A DNA stretch of 33,537 nucleotides from a virus (Duplodnaviria > Heunggongvirae > Uroviricota > Caudoviricetes). Position 1 is the stretch's first letter. Each line of letters begins with the position of its first letter. A program made the position numbers and the translations under genes. The notes below the pieces were generated by a model. It ran no database searches. It had not been told where the DNA came from and saw nothing but the letters and a program-made list of their open reading frames with translations. This document shows positions 14,916 to 28,200 of this stretch, one piece after another. The stretch lies in the IMG/VR virus record IMGVR_UViG_2734482570_000003; one strand, 5' to 3'.

Positions 14916-14931
14916 TGCGACCACGGTCGCA
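14916..14931. repeat. sopC-like centromere palindrome TGCGACC-AC-GGTCGCA (copy 1 of 4)
   Basis: Perfect 7-bp inverted arms around a 2-bp centre; one change per arm from the F-plasmid SopB site TGGGACC-AC-GGTCCCA. Confidence 0.6.
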
Positions 14932-14951: not shown

Positions 14952-15263
14952 TTATGCTACAGAGGAACAAGCTGGCGGGTAATTCAGCGTAGTGAATACC
15001 GGCATCTCCATCTTGTATGCGTAATGATACTCAGCAGTTGCTCCAGCAGACGCTTTCCAGCCAGGAAGCATCAAAATAGCATCAGCACAACGAAGCATTG
15101 CAAAGCAAATATCCATGTATTCACGTTGTGTCAGACCATTAGGCAAAGTGGCTGGATTCAAGACAGAGTGACCATGTCGTGACAAACGATCTGCCTCTTT
15201 ATTAAAGGCGTCACGATTAAAGTTCTCATATCCCGTCATTGGCCCGGCAATATAAATTTTCAT
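14952..15263 (-). CDS. DUF4406-like protein (nucleoside 2-deoxyribosyltransferase-like fold)
   Basis: 103 aa with N-terminal MKIYIAGPMTG motif typical of that family; sits between lysis genes and cos. Confidence 0.5.
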   Translation of the reverse strand: MKIYIAGPMTGYENFNRDAFNKEADRLSRHGHSVLNPATLPNGLTQREYMDICFAMLRCADAILMLPGWKASAGATAEYHYAYKMEMPVFTTLNYPPACSSVA

Positions 15264-15304
15264 TCACTATCCAACAAATTGAGCTCGTTTTTGATACAGA
15301 GGTA

Positions 15305-15754
15305 TTAATTCAGGCATTGCGTCTTGATGTATTCCTGCAAGTAGTTAACCTGCGCAGTTATCCTGTCGATCCCACTTCGGAGACGGTAATAATTGAGTTC
15401 AGCATCTGCTGTAAGTCTTGGGCTTTCTCCATTGCCCATGCCGCTGGCTCCGGTCGTTGACTTTGCACAGGTGGCGGCGACTTGCAGGCGCTTACGCCCA
15501 GCAGAAACATCAGCACGGAGGCTTTCGATAGTCGCGTTAGCATCAGCAAGCTCCTTTGTATATCTGGCATCGAGTTCCGCTACGTCACGTTGACGCTTCT
15601 GCATATCAGCGATTGTGGATGTGGCTTTATCGCGCTGCTCTTTGTAGGCGATGGCGTTATCACGGTAATGATTAACAGCCCACGACAGGCAGACGATGAT
15701 GCAAATAACCAGAGCGGAGATAATCGCGGTTACCCTGCTCATTGTTGACCCCAC
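15305..15754 (-). CDS. Rz: Spanin inner-membrane subunit Rz (i-spanin)
   Basis: N-terminal TM helix [20 protein letters not shown] then coiled-coil; probable start at MSRV (about 15742); directly after the endolysin gene. Confidence 0.85.
15358..15540 (-). CDS. Rz1: Spanin outer-membrane lipoprotein Rz1 (o-spanin), embedded in Rz in another frame
   Basis: Embedded ORF with lipobox LLGVSAC followed by Pro-rich [13 protein letters not shown]; start codon uncertain. Confidence 0.6.
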
Positions 15755-16239
15755 AAACAGACTTCACGCTCAATCTCACGACGAGTCATCAGGCCTTTCC
15801 ATTGCTTACCGCCAGCAGATATCCAGCGACGTAGCTGATCACATGCGCCTTTGATATCGCCCTGGTTTATTTTGCGAAGAAGCGTCGATGTTCTGAAATT
15901 ACCAGCACCCACGTTGTAAACGAACGAGTAAAGAGCGCCGCGCGTTGTTTCCGGTATATCGACTTTGATGTACGGGTTAATTTGTCTGGCGACAGTGGCA
16001 AGGTCTTTATTCAGGAGAGCTTTGCATTCTGCTTCGGTATACGTTTTACCTAGCATGATGTCTTTTCCAGTGTGTCCATAACATACAGTCCATACGCCAA
16101 CAATATCTTTGTATGGTATGTAACTGACACCTTCCAGACCATCGTTACCACTTGGGCCAGTGATGAGCATAGACGCTATGGCAATAGCCCCGCCACCAAT
16201 AGCAGCTGTGACAGCTTTGCGTAATGATGACTGCATCAT
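15739..16239 (-). CDS. R: SAR endolysin (phage lysozyme, phage 21 R-type)
   Basis: 166 aa; N-terminal Gly/Ala-rich signal-anchor-release segment [21 protein letters not shown]; lysozyme-like core. Confidence 0.85.
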
Positions 16240-16508
16240 ATTTCCTTCGGTGCTCTCTTCCCCAGCTCTCCAATAACCATCGCTGTAGCAGAAAGATTAT
16301 TGGTATTAGTTTTATCCAATATGTCCTGCAATATCTTCGTGCGCTTCATCTGCTCGCGTTTATTGAGCCGGTATGTAAGCACACCGAGGATAATGCTGAA
16401 CGCGACACCGATAATGAAGCCCCAATCCTGCAATGACAGGCTGGCAAAGAACGCAGCAAGACCAGCGCTACCATAAGATGCACTGCTGTATCGTTCATCC
16501 ATCTTCAT
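16236..16508 (-). CDS. S: Putative holin (pinholin-like, two TM segments)
   Basis: 90 aa with two hydrophobic segments ([13 protein letters not shown] and [18 protein letters not shown]); overlaps the endolysin start; position. Confidence 0.6.
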
Positions 16509-16603
16509 ATCTCTTACCTCGCAATAGTTGCTGAGGTTTCGGCTTGGAAACTATATGGCGAAAATAACCCCTACCAAAAACGGCAGGGGAATATATTCTC
16601 CAG

Positions 16604-17725
16604 TTACTCAAATAACTTTTTCACTTCATCAACTGTCTGAAGATAACGTTCGCCCTCAATCTCAATACCTATTGCCTGACGTCCTAACTTCAGCGCAGCT
16701 TTAATAGTTGAGCCTGATCCCATAAAGAAATCGGCAACGATATCTCCGGGGCGTGAACTACTCTTTATAATATGTTCCATCATCGCTGCAGGTTTTTCAC
16801 ATGGGTGCTTGCCAGGATAATATTGCACAGGAGGAAACTCCCATACATCGGTATAAGGTACATCAGCAGTAACATGAAATGGACGGCGTAAATTTTCATA
16901 CTGAGCCTTCAAATCATCATACTGCTTCTTTACTTCCTCATAATGCAATTTCAGATCGCTATAACGCTTTTCATGTTCTGAATAATCAAAATTAAAAGGA
17001 TATGGACACGGGACACCGAGTGAATCTGCCTTCCTGCGAAATAATTCGCATAGTTTATTAAAATCAATTAATGATGGAAGCCGCCACTGCGAATAAGAAA
17101 ACCAGTGTGAACACATCTGCTTTCCTGTCGCTGAATTAATGTCTGCGGCTGATATATCTAACTGACGGCGAGCCAGCGAAAAAGCATCAATTAGTGGAGA
17201 AAAAATATTTTTTCTTAAATCTGCACATTTTGAAGCATAACCTGACTGACCTTTAGCATAACCTGACGCGCCGTAATGCTCTGCAAATAATATTCTTTCA
17301 GTAGCAGGAAAATAAGCCCTTAAACTTTCTTTATGACAACCGCGCCACATACCACTGGGTTTAGCCCAAATGATATGGTTCAGAACATTGAAACGGTCGC
17401 GAGTTAATAATTCAATTTTTGACGCAAGGCGAGAGCCGGTAAACATATACAGGCTGCCATTAGGGGCCAATATCCGCCAAAATTCTGCCAAAAATTCGTC
17501 AATCCACCCCAAAAAGTCAGCATCGCTATCCCACTGGTTATCCCATGCGTTAGCCTTTACGCCGAAGTATGGTGGGTCTGTTGCAATCAAATTGACCGAG
17601 TTATCAGGGATGGTTTTGATAAATTGCAGAGAATCTGCGCAAACGAGTTGTGCGCCATGAATATTAGTGGTTTTGAACATAGCTATTATTTTTTTGCCTG
17701 GGTAAGCTAACCCGGCGATGCGCAT
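16604..17725 (-). CDS. DNA methyltransferase, beta-class amino-MTase (N6-adenine or N4-cytosine), orphan
   Basis: DPPY motif IV near the N-terminus (LIATDPPYFG) and motif I near the C-terminus (DFFMGSGST); no adjacent restriction endonuclease candidate. Alternative start at 17680. Confidence 0.85.
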   Translation of the reverse strand: MRIAGLAYPGKKIIAMFKTTNIHGAQLVCADSLQFIKTIPDNSVNLIATDPPYFGVKANAWDNQWDSDADFLGWIDEFLAEFWRILAPNGSLYMFTGSRLASKIELLTRDRFNVLNHIIWAKPSGMWRGCHKESLRAYFPATERILFAEHYGASGYAKGQSGYASKCADLRKNIFSPLIDAFSLARRQLDISAADINSATGKQMCSHWFSYSQWRLPSLIDFNKLCELFRRKADSLGVPCPYPFNFDYSEHEKRYSDLKLHYEEVKKQYDDLKAQYENLRRPFHVTADVPYTDVWEFPPVQYYPGKHPCEKPAAMMEHIIKSSSRPGDIVADFFMGSGSTIKAALKLGRQAIGIEIEGERYLQTVDEVKKLFE

Positions 17726-17814
17726 CGCGGGTGGGCTTTAGGTTCAGCCTATAGCTCTGGCATGGGTTGACCGCAGGACAAGCTGCAACTTGTCCTGCGC
17801 CCACTTTTCAGGCA

Positions 17815-17837
17815 CAAAAAAACCGCCATAAAGGCGG
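17815..17837 (-). terminator. Rho-independent terminator upstream of the methyltransferase gene
   Basis: Minus strand CCGCC-TTTAT-GGCGG followed by T7-8 (plus-strand A-run 17815-17822). Confidence 0.6.
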
Positions 17838-17925
17838 CTTGTTGGCTGTTGGGTACAAAAAACCCAACTTAACAAAACAATAACTAAAAACCGTCATTTT
17901 GCCAAGCTTTTTCGTTTTTGTGCTG

Positions 17926-17941
17926 TGCGACCGTGGTCGCA
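17926..17941. repeat. sopC-like centromere palindrome TGCGACC-GT-GGTCGCA (copy 2; extends to 22-bp CTGTGCGACCGTGGTCGCACAG)
   Basis: Perfect palindrome; exact reverse-orientation match to copies 1 and 3. Confidence 0.6.
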
Positions 17942-17947
17942 CAGCTT

Positions 17948-18410: not shown

Positions 18411-18575
18411 AATATCCTCCAAATTCATATAGTTAGTGGGTTATTACCCCTCAATGACACGAACTGTAACTCTGCCAAACGAACACATCCAGTGTTATTT
18501 TTCGCTTTTTAGTGAAATTTTTGATTTGCGTTGTTTTCTTGTTTTGGTGTATTTTATGGATATGGAGGCTATAAT

Positions 18576-18887
18576 ATGTTTAACGTGATAACCCACCCTG
18601 CAGCACTGGATGAACTGCTTGAACTACCAGATGATTTGCGAGGTCGCATGACCAGATTAATTGAGCGACTGGAGAAAGAAGGCAACAAACTGAAGATGCC
18701 CCATAGCCGTGTAATAGGTGGAGGGCTTTTTGAACTACGAGTAGGGGATAAAAACATCGCAAGAACGCTGTACGCCTACGCGACTGGTAACGAAATTTAT
18801 CTATTGCATGCATTTGTAAAAAAGACACAGAAAACACCGGTGAAGGCTATCGAAATCGCCAGAACTCGCCTGAAGGAGATGAACTGA
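18576..18887 (+). CDS. Type II toxin, RelE/ParE superfamily (HigB / Gp49-like)
   Basis: Track ORF 18531..18887; GGAGG 8 nt before the ATG at 18576; Gp49/HigB-like sequence pattern; toxin precedes antitoxin. Confidence 0.7.
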   Translation: MFNVITHPAALDELLELPDDLRGRMTRLIERLEKEGNKLKMPHSRVIGGGLFELRVGDKNIARTLYAYATGNEIYLLHAFVKKTQKTPVKAIEIARTRLKEMN

Positions 18888-19174
18888 TGAAAGCGAAAGG
18901 CATCCCGTTTAACGAAGTAAAAGAAAAACTCCTCAACACTCCAGAAGCCGTCAAAGGATATGAAGAGGCCGACAAAGAGCTGGAGATGGTCGAAATGTTA
19001 TACGAAATGAGGGAAAGAGCAGGTTTAACGAAATCAGCTCTGGCTGAACGAATGGGGTTGCGACCGTCAGCCATCAGCCGCCTGGAAAGCAATCCTTTAG
19101 GGGCAAGTATGAAAACTTTGGCTAAATATGCTCATGCCTGCGGCGCAACCATCGATATTCGCGCTGTTTATTAA
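18887..19174 (+). CDS. HTH XRE-family antitoxin (HigA-like)
   Basis: 95 aa; HTH segment LTKSALAERMGLRPSAISRLE; start overlaps the toxin stop (TGATG). Confidence 0.7.
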   Translation: MKAKGIPFNEVKEKLLNTPEAVKGYEEADKELEMVEMLYEMRERAGLTKSALAERMGLRPSAISRLESNPLGASMKTLAKYAHACGATIDIRAVY

Positions 19175-22924: not shown

Positions 22925-23152
22925 CTATACCCAAATTTTCTGTTGATATGTTCTGGATGGTTTTGGCGTTCTTTCTGATTCAGGTAAATGAACATAAACG
23001 CAATATCCATCACCTAAAAAATCAGAACGAACAACCAGAACTTTCTTACCACGCCGCCGATAAGTATCTGAAAGACGCTCTGCTTCATCATGCGTCATCG
23101 GCCCCTGCTTAAATGGCGTTATTTTCATTTTCTTGTGCGACCACGGTCGCAC
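22925..23152 (-). CDS. Hypothetical small protein
   Basis: 75-aa ORF; start uncertain. Confidence 0.3.
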   Translation of the reverse strand: MRPWSHKKMKITPFKQGPMTHDEAERLSDTYRRRGKKVLVVRSDFLGDGYCVYVHLPESERTPKPSRTYQQKIWV

Positions 23153-23429
23153 CCTCTCTGATTTCCAAGTAACGCTTAATCCAAAGATTTTCTATATGCT
23201 TATTACCTGGCTGATTTGATAAATACCAATCGGCAATTACAGACTGCTTATTACTATCTGGTCGTGTCCTGTAACCACAAGTTGGACACCAGATAACATA
23301 TTCATTTCTTACCCCCGAATACCTTAATTCTGGCTTCGACGGTTTCCTGAACATAACTTGTTTACAAAGACAGAATGGCACTTCCTGCCCGATGGCGTTT
23401 GATGATTTCACTGCGCTTCTCCGCCGCAT
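23109..23429 (-). CDS. Hypothetical protein with CxC...CxxC motif
   Basis: 106 aa; FCLCKQ ... WCPTCGY. Confidence 0.4.
   Translation of the reverse strand: MRRRSAVKSSNAIGQEVPFCLCKQVMFRKPSKPELRYSGVRNEYVIWCPTCGYRTRPDSNKQSVIADWYLSNQPGNKHIENLWIKRYLEIREGATVVAQENENNAI
23136..23151. repeat. sopC-like centromere palindrome TGCGACC-AC-GGTCGCA (copy 3)
   Basis: Identical 16-mer to copy 1; lies in the 3-prime end of the 23109..23429 ORF. Confidence 0.6.
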
Positions 23430-24072
23430 TTAATAATGCAGTTCGATTTAAGCTCAGACATCGCGACTTAATTAAAAGCCAGCGTTCTTTATAATCTTGT
23501 CTCCAGCTATCAATAGATATATTCAGTAGAAAACTCAGATGCCTGTCCTGTTCTCTCTCATCAACTGCCTCAGCACACGTAAGTTCTGATTTAACCTGTT
23601 GTGCCGCGTAATAAATCAATTTCCGCATGGCTTTTTTCGTGGAGGCCTTCATTTTTTTAAAGCCGCCCCCCGAATGAGCAACCAGAAAATCAAGCCATAA
23701 CCACTGACAAACAATCACATCATTGTTGTAATCAGGCTTGCATCCGTAGCAATAATAAAGCCAGGCTGATTCCTCGTTATTCAACTGACCAATAGCCCTG
23801 CGCCAGCTGGCGCTCTGAAAATCAATATCAGTGAGCAACATTGATGATTGTTTAAATGTTTTCCCCTGGTGGAATCTAACCGGCTCAGCAGGAACGGACA
23901 CTTCGTATGAGTTATCATCCCCCACACTGATTGACCGGACTGGTTTATTGTTAAACCGTCCTGATCTACCGAGACGCATCTGCTCAAGCTGGACCTCCAG
24001 AATGCCACGCTGGCGATAATGAACATCAGCCAATGCCGTAGAGACGCAGCTGCGTATATACTCAAGCTCCAC
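23362..24072 (-). CDS. Possible late-gene antiterminator Q-like protein (assignment by position only)
   Basis: 236-aa ORF immediately downstream of cro, where N15-type immunity regions carry Q; no motif verified. Confidence 0.35.
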   Translation of the reverse strand: MELEYIRSCVSTALADVHYRQRGILEVQLEQMRLGRSGRFNNKPVRSISVGDDNSYEVSVPAEPVRFHQGKTFKQSSMLLTDIDFQSASWRRAIGQLNNEESAWLYYCYGCKPDYNNDVIVCQWLWLDFLVAHSGGGFKKMKASTKKAMRKLIYYAAQQVKSELTCAEAVDEREQDRHLSFLLNISIDSWRQDYKERWLLIKSRCLSLNRTALLNAAEKRSEIIKRHRAGSAILSL

Positions 24073-25216: not shown

Positions 25217-28200
25217 ATGACATTAAACGATTTCTATGCGGATCGCTTTGGCAGCGATCCGTTCTCGCTAATTGAAGCAGCACGGGATGAACTAACCGAG
25301 CTGGCACAGATGGCTGGTATCAACTGGCCTGCCTGTTCCGACAACATCCAACTCAACCCTCGCGGGGGGGTTGAGCGTTACTCTTCATACAATAAAACAT
25401 CTCCAGAAGCTCTCGAAAAGAGCCTGAAAGGACGCGTAGAAATTTACTCCAGGCTGGAACACAGCAAAGGGATTGATTACCCGTTCATTAACTTCGTCCA
25501 TAAAGGCAGCGATGCTGGCTCATGGAGCGGTTTCTCCTTCCTGTTTTCTGAATATCGCCGTGAGCAACAACGGAATAATGCGACCGTGGTCGCACAACCG
25601 GAAGAAGAACGGGAAAGAATAGAACGTCAGGCCGAAGCACGTCGTCGCCGTGAAGAACAAAAACGAATTAATGACCTGAAAAACAACCAAATGGACCATG
25701 AACGTTTGCTGGGATGGCTGGCATTCCACAGCGCGTGGGAACATGCTCCGGCTGAAGACGGCTCATGGCCATATGCGATTAAAAAAGGTATTCGTGACGT
25801 TTTTAGTTCATGTGATGTGCGTCGCGTGACCAGTCACGACAGTGCGAAATGGAGCCGGGGGCCAACCACATATATGGCTATCCCTCTGGCTCACCTGGAC
25901 AGTCGTTATGATGGTCGTATTGTGGGTTGGCAGCGAATCGACAAACAAGGTGGGAAATACCAGACCAGCGCAGTAACCAGCGGCGATTTCGTCGGTGCCT
26001 GCTTTGTTATCGGTGAGCTGAAAGGGGCGCAAAACATCGCTGTTACAGAAGGTTTTGCTACTGGTGCATCCATCTGGCTTGCCACGAAAAAAGATAAACG
26101 CTTTGACGCTGTGGTTGTCGCTGTATCCGCTAACAACATGGTTCATGTTGTGGAACAACTGGTAAACATGTACCCGGCGGCAAAAATCACCTGCGCACTG
26201 GATAATGACCGGAAATCTGCCACAGAAGGAAAAGGGAATACCGGCCTGCGGACTGGCTATGAAATCTTATCGAAATTCAACGATGTCCGCTGCGTCTATC
26301 CAACTTTTGAAGACGATCCGCAAATGGAGTGCAGTGACTTCAACGACCTGCACAAACTACGTGGACTTCGTGAAACAGCACGTCAACTATTTGCAACAGC
26401 AAACCGCCTGAAAACCGGTACTGATTTGCTATCTCTGACGCTCAACCGCCTGAAGACAATTAAGCGGGATAACCGTCGTACTTTTGCCAAAGAGCTGCTG
26501 AGAGCGGTGGATATTGGCATGCTAACCTGTCCGGTTCCTAACAGTCCGTCAGATTTATTTAACATGTTCTGCATCGTTCTGCGTGAAATGGGACTGGAAA
26601 ATATCTATCGTGCTACGGTAAAAGACCACATTGCCCGTCGCCTGAATAAAAAGTGCCGTATTGCCCAGGCTCCGCGCTCTTTCAGCGAACGCATAACTGA
26701 TCCCAATAAACGACCTCAACATATCACCTATAAGCGTTTTGAAACTTCGGTAATGACCGATGATGTCCTGAAGTACGTGCAATCACTACAGGGGATAGTC
26801 ATCGTCCGTGCTGGTATGGGTTCCGGCAAATCTACTGGATTGTTACGACCGTTAATGCATAGCTCAGAACGTGGTATCTCTGTTGCTCACCGTGTCTCCC
26901 TTATTGGTGGCCTGTGGGAAATGATGACAGAAGGAAAAGGTGTAAAAGCCGATATCCTGCACTATCAGGATCCTGGCTATCAGGAAATGGCTCCATACGC
27001 CAGTAAACTGACCATCTGCATAAACTCGATTGTTAAAAACTGCTGGCAACCGTTGATGCGCCAGCACGACTATTTTGGCTTTGACGAGGCCACACAAGGG
27101 CTACGTGCCGTTCTTTCCGGTCGGGCTATGGAAAACCCGGTGGCTGTATTCAATACGCTAATTGACGCGCTGGCCAGAACGGAACAACACCCAATCATGG
27201 TGGATGCTGATGCGAACGATCTGCTGGTTGACCTGGCTGAACTAGCTATGAAACGCCGTGAAGAACTAGGTTTACCGGCATGGCTGCAGATCCACGTAAT
27301 TGAATTACCTGTTGATGTTCGCAACCGCGAAACAGGTGAGCCAATCCGGGTTTTTTATACAGAAAAAGATCGCATCATGACCGAGGTGGTGAAAGCTGTA
27401 TCGGATGGCGAAAAAATCATGTTGGCCACCGACAGCTCCACCTTTGCAGAAGATGTGACAGCCACCCTGAGAATGCATTTTCCTGGTAAGAAATTTCTGT
27501 GTGTAAACCAGAAAAACAAACCAGAGCCAGAAGTTGAAGCATTTACCAATCAACCGAAAAAGATGGTCAAAAAATACGACGGCCTGATTTATAGCCCGTC
27601 TATTTCATCCGGCGTGTCGATTGAGCAAAAACATTTTGACCGTCATTTCGGCATGTTCTGTGGTGAAGTTGTACCCAGCGACGCAGTGCAAATGCTACGC
27701 CGCGACCGTACAGCAAAAGAATTTATTATCGGCTTTGATAAAGCTCGTGCAAAACGTGAAACTGACCCGCAAAAAATAGAACGAGCATTCGCCCAGGCAT
27801 TGCTTGCTACTGCAGGTATGAACGGTGAACTGACGGATGTCGTTTTCGATGGCGACCGTATATCAATGGGGGTGGCCAATACCGACTTTACCAGGATGAA
27901 AATTAAAGCAGCCGCAATTGAAGCGTCTGCACGTAACGACTACGCCAGCAACATGATCTGCATCATGCACAGCGACGGTTATAAGATATCGCCGCTGGCC
28001 ACCGATTATGCTGCAAATGATATCGGTAAAGATCTGCGTAAAGAAGCGCGGGATATTGTGTGGGAACAGACACTGGATCTGCATCTCAATACAGAAACTC
28101 CACAAGAATCAGAGCGTGAAGAACTGCTAAAAAAACGCGCGCTAACGCTTGAAGAACAGGCAAAACTTGTCCGCTGGGATATTGAGAACGAACTGAAACT

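Follow-up and report, generated by a model that had tools for sequence, protein, structure and literature searches.

The locus analysed here raises the question of when a temperate phage-plasmid expresses a DNA methyltransferase that has no restriction partner, and what role the enzyme then has. The gene lies on the minus strand of a 33,537-nucleotide (nt) stretch of DNA, IMG/VR virus record IMGVR_UViG_2734482570_000003, the whole of which is referred to below as the window. Nucleotide matches to phages and plasmids, gene order, and open reading frames (ORFs) of 1331 amino acids (aa; repA-sized) and 635 aa (telN-sized), accompanied by lambda-like head and tail genes, identify the window as a linear phage-plasmid of the N15/phiKO2 type. 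The 4-kb stretch around the gene shares 97% identity with Escherichia phages YDC107_1 and PhiR46_1 and has partial matches to Klebsiella phage phiKO2, and its core 1.5 kb is present in 32 non-mobilizable plasmids of approximately 46-50 kb from E. coli, E. albertii, and Shigella. A preliminary description of this DNA had read the gene as independently transcribed cargo, probably for anti-restriction self-methylation or epigenetic regulation. We consider it probable that the gene is instead the first of a Q-dependent late operon, that its product is a non-specific adenine methyltransferase of the M.EcoGII type with an anti-restriction role, and that its expression is gated twice because such an enzyme is harmful to the host. 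The coordinates of the relevant features are collected in Table 1.

We first established the reading frame and class of the enzyme. A minus-strand ORF at the locus covers 16604-17725, and public records call a 373-aa protein from the ATG at 17725. However, N15, phiKO2, M.EcoGII, and 36 other relatives conserve the ATG at 17680 as the start, which yields 358 aa, and the 15-codon extension up to 17725 falls within a conserved RNA leader described below. The protein matches PF01555 (N6_N4_Mtase) at 1.1e-46, scoring 160 bits against a cut-off of 26.7 over profile positions 1-216 of 221. It was noted that the motifs follow the order DPPY, target recognition domain, FxGxG, with the catalytic residues intact. 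Because DPPY precedes FxGxG, the enzyme belongs to the beta class, as had been proposed. A Dam-type (alpha-class) methylase was considered and rejected. The presence of DPPY instead of SPPY points to N6-adenine methylation. The nearest solved structures are those of M.RsrI, DpnA, M.MboIIA, and CcrM. The neighbouring genes encode a holin, gp51-like and gp50-like proteins, a toxin-antitoxin pair, and phage proteins; searches of these neighbours with Pfam, PHROGs, and PADLOC recovered no restriction endonuclease or other nuclease. The earlier statement that a restriction partner is missing was thus borne out, and membership in a restriction-modification system was rejected.

Judged by its sequence, the enzyme is a full-length member of the M.EcoGII family and is closer to that family than to any site-specific enzyme. 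It shares 83.7% identity over 349 aa with the full N15 gene 52 ORF, 62% with phiKO2 gp52, and 56% over 358 aa with M.EcoGII (E 8e-143, end to end; the M.EcoGII sequence was machine-read from PMC11551740 Table S1, so a few errors are possible). Its identity to SUPREM/Anc284, a reconstructed ancestor that is non-site-specific (Ochiai et al. 2024; PMC11551740), is 61%, again end to end. M.EcoGII and M.EcoGI are non-specific adenine methyltransferases of E. coli O104:H4 prophages, and M.EcoGII modifies adenine whatever the surrounding sequence, stays silent in lysogens, and proves toxic on expression (Murray et al. 2018). A copy of the gene in an Stx2 phage encodes a protein 93% identical to M.EcoGII. 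The alignment with M.EcoGII is collinear through the recognition domain, presumably helical as in that family, and through a charged linker (aa 215-268; 11 K/R and 10 D/E) that would separate the two Rossmann-domain halves; the recognition domains share 45% identity. Among nine diverged family members, 23 of the 55 columns of the recognition-domain core (aa 161-215) are invariant, a density similar to that of the catalytic halves, which suggests that the family uses one shared mode of substrate recognition. From these comparisons, the most likely activity of the enzyme is adenine methylation with weak sequence preference or none. The target site, which had been left open in the preliminary description, can be narrowed to this extent: those members of the family that have been tested show no context requirement for adenine methylation.

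An orphan methylase that is expressed late but recognises a specific sequence, guarding against one or a few restriction systems or marking a defined motif, was weighed against the same data, and we regard it as unlikely. The nearest family outgroup, M.PflMI, is site-specific, yet its identity to M.EcoGII is only 27% and it is missing the charged linker (PMC11551740) that is kept here. Public records name the protein 'site-specific DNA-methyltransferase' or 'DNA adenine methylase', though these are generic pipeline names. While the recognition domain has diverged from that of M.EcoGII to the extent given above, its core is conserved family-wide, and the enzyme sits well within the M.EcoGII cluster, with greater identity to the non-specific ancestor than to M.EcoGII itself.

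The region upstream of the gene was then compared with those of N15 and phiKO2. The window aligns base for base with both through the promoter hexamers and the terminator and on to the ATG, the hexamers coinciding with the annotated -35 and -10 of N15 and with the 'putative late promoter' of phiKO2. The minus-strand intrinsic terminator seen earlier is real; this element, T1, is invariant in 13 diverged relatives and is annotated as a stem-loop in N15 and as a terminator in phiKO2. The site previously called sopC-like also proved genuine, as an N15 IR3-type SopB centromere. Its core, TGCGACCGTGGTCGCA at 17926-17941, occurs in four exact copies in the window, starting at 14916, 17926, 23136, and 25579, compared to 0.14 expected, and at least four copies arose in 0 of 100 shuffles. 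IR3 is one of the four SopB-binding centromere repeats of N15, and its published oligonucleotide (PMC7205306 Table 4) equals the N15 row of our leader-region alignment. The phiKO2 record labels the palindrome at the IR3 position 'putative plasmid partitioning site'. By alignment, these upstream elements are the orthologous N15/phiKO2 late-promoter region and not the edge of a separate unit.

A consensus scan found no sigma-70-like promoter on the minus strand between T1 and the ATG (17812-17681). Taken together, the late promoter, T1, and the Q-like gene encountered upstream of them make the methylase the predicted first gene of a Q-dependent late operon, and the position of T1 between promoter and gene implies that the gene would be off in the lysogen and read through once Q is made. 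In N15, p52 is reportedly the late promoter and Q is said to antiterminate the leader terminators; IR2 and IR3, together with SopAB, reportedly raise late expression. Just past the -10 we noted a block, TAAGTTGGG, that hardly varies across the 15 diverged leaders. We regard it as a candidate element for sigma-dependent pausing or Q loading, because it resembles the lambda pR' layout of a -10-like pause element followed by GGG.

From this arrangement we propose the following mechanism. The late promoter (the p52 equivalent), just downstream of the SopB centromere site (the IR3 equivalent), would start late transcription. Within the lysogen, transcripts would halt approximately 57 nt on at T1, leaving the methylase silent. 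After induction, the Q-like antiterminator would carry RNA polymerase through T1, the leader, the methylase, and the second terminator T2, and read-through would continue into the holin, endolysin, Rz, and packaging genes. The enzyme would then coat the replicated phage DNA with N6-methyladenine (m6A) just before packaging, and this coat would shield the phage DNA from many restriction systems in the next host. Termination and antitermination would form the first gate; the second, more tentative one would be the folded leader, pairing with a weak ribosome-binding region. The likely role of the enzyme is therefore described as late blanket m6A marking of progeny DNA for protection at exit, and a recent review groups M.EcoGII with protective modifiers acting at exit time. 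Of the two functions suggested previously, anti-restriction self-methylation remains the most likely, while a gene that lies behind terminators is an improbable agent of epigenetic regulation in lysogens. In this account, orthology, synteny, the intact motifs, the conservation of promoter, terminator, and centromere, and the RNA covariation were observed directly, and the rest is inferred: Q-dependence from experiments in N15, non-specificity from M.EcoGII and the reconstructed ancestor, and likewise the anti-restriction role and translational gating.

Two further observations concern the promoter region. The transcript predicted to run from the late promoter to T1 in lysogens (about 17870-17813, minus strand) would contain a 7-bp 5' hairpin (17868-17848) followed by the terminator hairpin, and it has no sequence match to any Rfam small RNA (sRNA) family. 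The PR'-tR' RNA of Stx phages is StxS, a functional Hfq-binding sRNA (PMC7547250), and the ~57-nt transcript might likewise act in trans. Among the relatives, the centromere palindrome also varies in type. In Klebsiella-type loci L028, L029, L031, L034, L070, and L074, TGGGACC-NN-GGTCCCA is found approximately 300 nt upstream of the methylase, replacing TGCGACC-NN-GGTCGCA, and locus L026 carries TGGGGCC-AT-GGCCCCA upstream of the late promoter. Both arms are altered together in these variants, and the position beside the late promoter is retained. We take TGGGACC-NN-GGTCCCA to be the F-plasmid sopC core type.

We sought to characterize the segment between T1 and the start codon, which is a conserved, structured 5' leader RNA. 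In it, a three-way junction with conserved junction bases is followed by a further hairpin, and part of the RNA pairs with the start-codon region. The leader is kept directly upstream of the methylase in N15-like elements of both E. coli and Klebsiella types and in lambdoid prophages, including an Stx2 phage; copies outside the window include L004:4852-5003 and L055:3861-4002. A covariance model (R1), built from 21 sequences, matched the window once only, at 113.9 bits, and detected the leader in 36 of 80 genome loci (L084-L163), in genera including Providencia, Proteus, Morganella, Citrobacter, Kluyvera, Erwinia, and Serratia. The match ended at, or a few bases from, the methylase start codon in 33 of these 36 loci, and in three Vibrio loci it ended approximately 145-175 nt upstream of the protein match.

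Covariation was counted on 36 distinct leader sequences. Helix P1 (UGGGC/GCCCA) was 100% paired and near-invariant, with four of its five pairs never varying. Compensatory changes were observed at all nine of the nine pairs of P2 and at four of the seven pairs of P3, where one position was C-G 19 times and U-A 16 times. Hairpin P4 was 84% paired, its arm sequences differing between lineages. The observed covariation score was reached by no shuffle, and pairing fell to 26-40% when the structures were shifted by one to three columns; the leader RNA of the window had a fold z-score of -5.4. P2 corresponds to the 10-bp-stem hairpin of the preliminary description, which is real but extends over 17798-17773 and not 17771-17796. 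A reading of this hairpin as a second intrinsic terminator was rejected, since no U-run follows it. An extended P2, in which UGGGC would pair with a proximal CCCAU, was also rejected because it showed one-sided changes only; the distal GCCCA pairing, with the covarying P3 inside, fits better, and the two pairings may be alternatives.

The loop of P3 pairs with the sequence just 5' of the AUG, as GAUC/GAUC in most lineages and as AGCUAU/AUAGCU in the window, a compensatory difference. By duplex energies, the start region was more complementary to the P3-loop segment than shuffles were in 30 of 53 sequences (z < -1.64). Only the GAUC/GAUC core of this helix was scored for covariation and the rest by duplex energies against shuffles; a single column register did not fit the longer helix across all subtypes. 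The window leader contains no good Shine-Dalgarno sequence. From its conservation and pairing, the leader is tentatively taken to control a toxic gene a second time, at the level of translation. If so, the switch would respond to a ligand or a protein, to the methylase itself, or to how fast the Q-modified polymerase moves.

Three stretches searched against Rfam 15 at permissive thresholds yielded no family for the leader (best 27 bits against a threshold of 40, or worse), and the sub-threshold matches all fall on the terminator hairpin. A literature search on this methylase in pR' regions returned nothing specific, and the leader appears to be an undescribed RNA element. We offer more guardedly, at somewhat below even confidence, the fuller proposal that it is a cis-regulatory RNA dedicated to M.EcoGII-family genes, which would block translation of the host-toxic methylase until late in the lytic cycle and would have accompanied the gene as it passed between lambdoid and N15-type phages throughout Enterobacterales. 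Vibrio-type homologues (L035-L053) were found without the leader. It was noted that loci L039, L046, L053, and L078 (Vibrio-type, approximately 60% identity) have a strong intrinsic terminator and a strong ribosome-binding site directly before the ATG. Placement behind a terminator thus seems general for the methylase family, and the leader does not. Hypothetical small proteins are annotated within the leader and promoter region in some records (for example, L002 5575-5736, where the methylase is L002 4435-5556). They are unlikely to be genes, since sequence change in this region follows an RNA structure and the indels do not come in multiples of three.

Several points weigh against the account of a doubly gated, non-specific, late-expressed enzyme. 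Specificity is not readable from sequence, and methyltransferases can switch specificity at 56% overall and 45% recognition-domain identity. The Q-dependent read-through was reportedly demonstrated in N15 and is predicted for this element, and the N15 and phiKO2 subtypes show little or no leader-start pairing. In addition, a weak internal promoter may escape a consensus scan, and the terminators on both sides of the methylase give it the look of a moron-like cassette. These last points bear on the earlier view of independently transcribed cargo, here taken as a moron-like gene active in the lysogen, where it would regulate host or prophage epigenetically; we now consider this highly improbable. 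A -10-like GAAAAGT does stand at the leader start, but no -35/-10 pair was found between T1 and the ATG, and the sole upstream promoter is the conserved late promoter with a terminator immediately after it. The start region, moreover, is paired and poor in ribosome-binding signal, and the characterised relative is silent in lysogens and toxic. Very little probability was likewise assigned to a main role in phage development, such as RNA methylation or the timing of packaging or replication as for P1 Dmt: M.EcoGII and the ancestors do methylate RNA and single-stranded DNA, and P1 packaging needs methylation, but there is no sign of a motif logic linked to cos or pac, many related lambdoid late regions lack the gene, so that it is dispensable for development, and the published view of the family favours protective methylation.

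Table 1. Positions of the methylase gene, its control elements, and surrounding features in the window
Feature	Position	Strand	Basis or remark
DNA adenine methyltransferase coding sequence, 358 aa	16604-17680, including stop codon	-	Pfam; alignments with N15 gene 52 and M.EcoGII
Motif IV DPPY, catalytic (aa 35-38)	17567-17578	-	Read directly; columns invariant in family alignment
Motif I FMGSG, S-adenosylmethionine-binding (aa 319-323)	16712-16726	-	Read directly; columns invariant in family alignment
SopB-binding centromere palindrome, N15 IR3 equivalent	17923-17944, core 17926-17941	.	Copy count; N15/phiKO2 alignment
Second centromere palindrome, downstream of Q (N15 IR2 position)	23136-23151	.	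Copy search
Centromere palindrome downstream of lysis genes and DUF4406 gene	14916-14931	.	phiKO2 partitioning site at analogous place
Centromere palindrome within repA	25579-25594	.	Copy search
Late promoter, N15 p52 equivalent (-35 TTGGCA 17905-17900; -10 TATTGT 17882-17877)	17877-17905	-	N15/phiKO2 alignment
Block TAAGTTGGG at about +1, -10-like hexamer then GGG	17863-17871	-	Conserved, 15/15 leaders
Intrinsic terminator T1 (tR'-like), between late promoter and leader/methylase	17813-17840	-	CCGCC/GGCGG stem and T7
Structured 5' leader RNA, ~135 nt, ending at ATG	17678-17810	-	nhmmer, covariance model, covariation, fold z-score
Helix P1, UGGGC with GCCCA	17803-17799 with 17736-17732	-	Encloses P2 and P3
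Helix P2, 10-bp stem, 6-nt loop	17773-17798	-	Compensatory changes
Hairpin P4	17711-17731	-	Leader structure
Leader-start pairing, AGCUAU with AUAGCU, directly 5' of AUG	17756-17751 with 17686-17681	-	Leader structure
Intrinsic terminator T2, between methylase and holin	16558-16589	-	Annotated at same position in N15 and phiKO2
Q-like late antiterminator gene, 5.4 kb upstream of late promoter	23362-24072	-	phrog_304 'anti-termination protein Q-like', 2e-72
Lysis cassette: holin 16236-16508, endolysin 15739-16239, Rz 15305-15754	15305-16508	-	Pfam
DUF4406 / nucleoside 2-deoxyribosyltransferase-like gene (N15 gene 57 type)	14952-15263	-	After lysis genes
Gp49/HigB-like toxin (PF05973, 3.9e-29) and helix-turn-helix antitoxin (PF01381, 2.8e-12)	18531-19174	+	Match N15 genes 49 and 48

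The closest known systems are N15 and phiKO2, with which the comparison rests on GenBank annotations and sequence alignments. Shared with them is the succession of toxin-antitoxin gp49/48, gp50, gp51, partition site, -35 and -10, terminator, gene 52 methylase, terminator, and holin and lysis genes. The palindromes are of the same type (TGCGACC-NN-GGTCGCA), four in number and dispersed, one of them directly next to the late promoter and another downstream of Q, and the hexamers (-35 TTGGCA, -10 TATYNT), the terminator, the leader, and a Q gene kilobases upstream are likewise in common. The elements differ in the lysis genes, which here are of the lambdoid/Stx type, and in the cytosine methylase gene 58 of N15, which is absent here. 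On sequence evidence, the methylase is a new member of the M.EcoGII family, while the gene and its control region were already known from N15 and phiKO2. In the N15 record (NC_001901), gene 52 is annotated from an internal Met as a 284-aa protein without DPPY. However, its ORF is intact from an ATG 234 nt upstream (L003 5388-6476, record 41387-42475), and the annotated start is probably wrong.

Compared to M.EcoGII and SUPREM, the enzyme is collinear over its full length, with the same beta-class layout of DPPY, presumably helical recognition domain, charged linker, and FxGxG. As with M.EcoGII, the gene is a prophage late-region gene behind terminators, and the same structured leader stands upstream of the Stx2-phage ortholog. 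In phage WGPS2 this Stx2-phage ortholog lies behind two terminators and ahead of tRNAs and stx2AB, and the lambdoid locus L055 shows the order Q, terminator, approximately 340 nt, leader, methylase, terminator, with endolysin further on. The differences from M.EcoGII are that the gene is carried by a linear plasmid prophage in which a centromere lies beside the promoter, that the linkers differ by nine residues and the recognition domains to the degree already stated, and that the activity of the present enzyme is a prediction.

The control region also resembles lambda pR'-qut-tR' and Stx PR'-tR' (StxS) in its presumably constitutive late promoter, its early terminator, and the predicted Q read-through and short terminated RNA. 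It differs from them in that Q lies 5.4 kb away rather than adjacent, that a partition site abuts the promoter, and that the terminated RNA would be approximately 57 nt long. Phage Mu mom offers a further parallel as a late, toxic, lysogen-silent, broad-spectrum protective DNA modification under layered control. However, the mom protein and its chemistry are unrelated, its control runs through Dam/OxyR, C, and Com (the last acting on an mRNA hairpin), and no Dam/OxyR, C, or Com-like factors were identified here.

The surrounding genes were examined for additional features of the element. The toxin-antitoxin pair is transcribed convergently with gp50 and gp51. Within the lysis cassette, Pfam matches were obtained to Phage_holin, Phage_lysozyme (4.5e-46), and Phage_lysis (8.1e-37). 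Endolysin and Rz (window 15200-16230) share approximately 94% identity with their counterparts in Stx-converting and other lambdoid phages, with N15-like flanks on both sides, which indicates that the lysis module was swapped in by mosaic exchange. In N15, the C5-cytosine methylase gene 58 neighbours gene 57; here the gene 57 counterpart follows the lysis genes and the adenine methylase alone is carried. Directly downstream of Q, a 106-aa ORF (23109-23429, minus strand) overlaps the IR2-type palindrome and has a weak, sub-threshold match to the restriction-alleviation family Lar (PF14354; E 3.6e-4, 21 bits against 28.6). If this match is real, the element would hold a second anti-restriction function.

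These results connect broad anti-restriction methylation of the M.EcoGII type with N15-type phage-plasmids, a common kind of element in E. coli, E. albertii, Shigella, and Klebsiella. As the gene lies in the late-control region and the enzyme is probably without a target site, blanket m6A would be expected in induced cells and virions, and none in the lysogen. The survival of a host that carries a non-specific adenine methylase has so far been explained only by non-expression, and the leader would provide a second layer of control that is concrete and open to testing. The leader is also a candidate for a new RNA motif and may be of use to laboratories expressing M.EcoGII-type enzymes.

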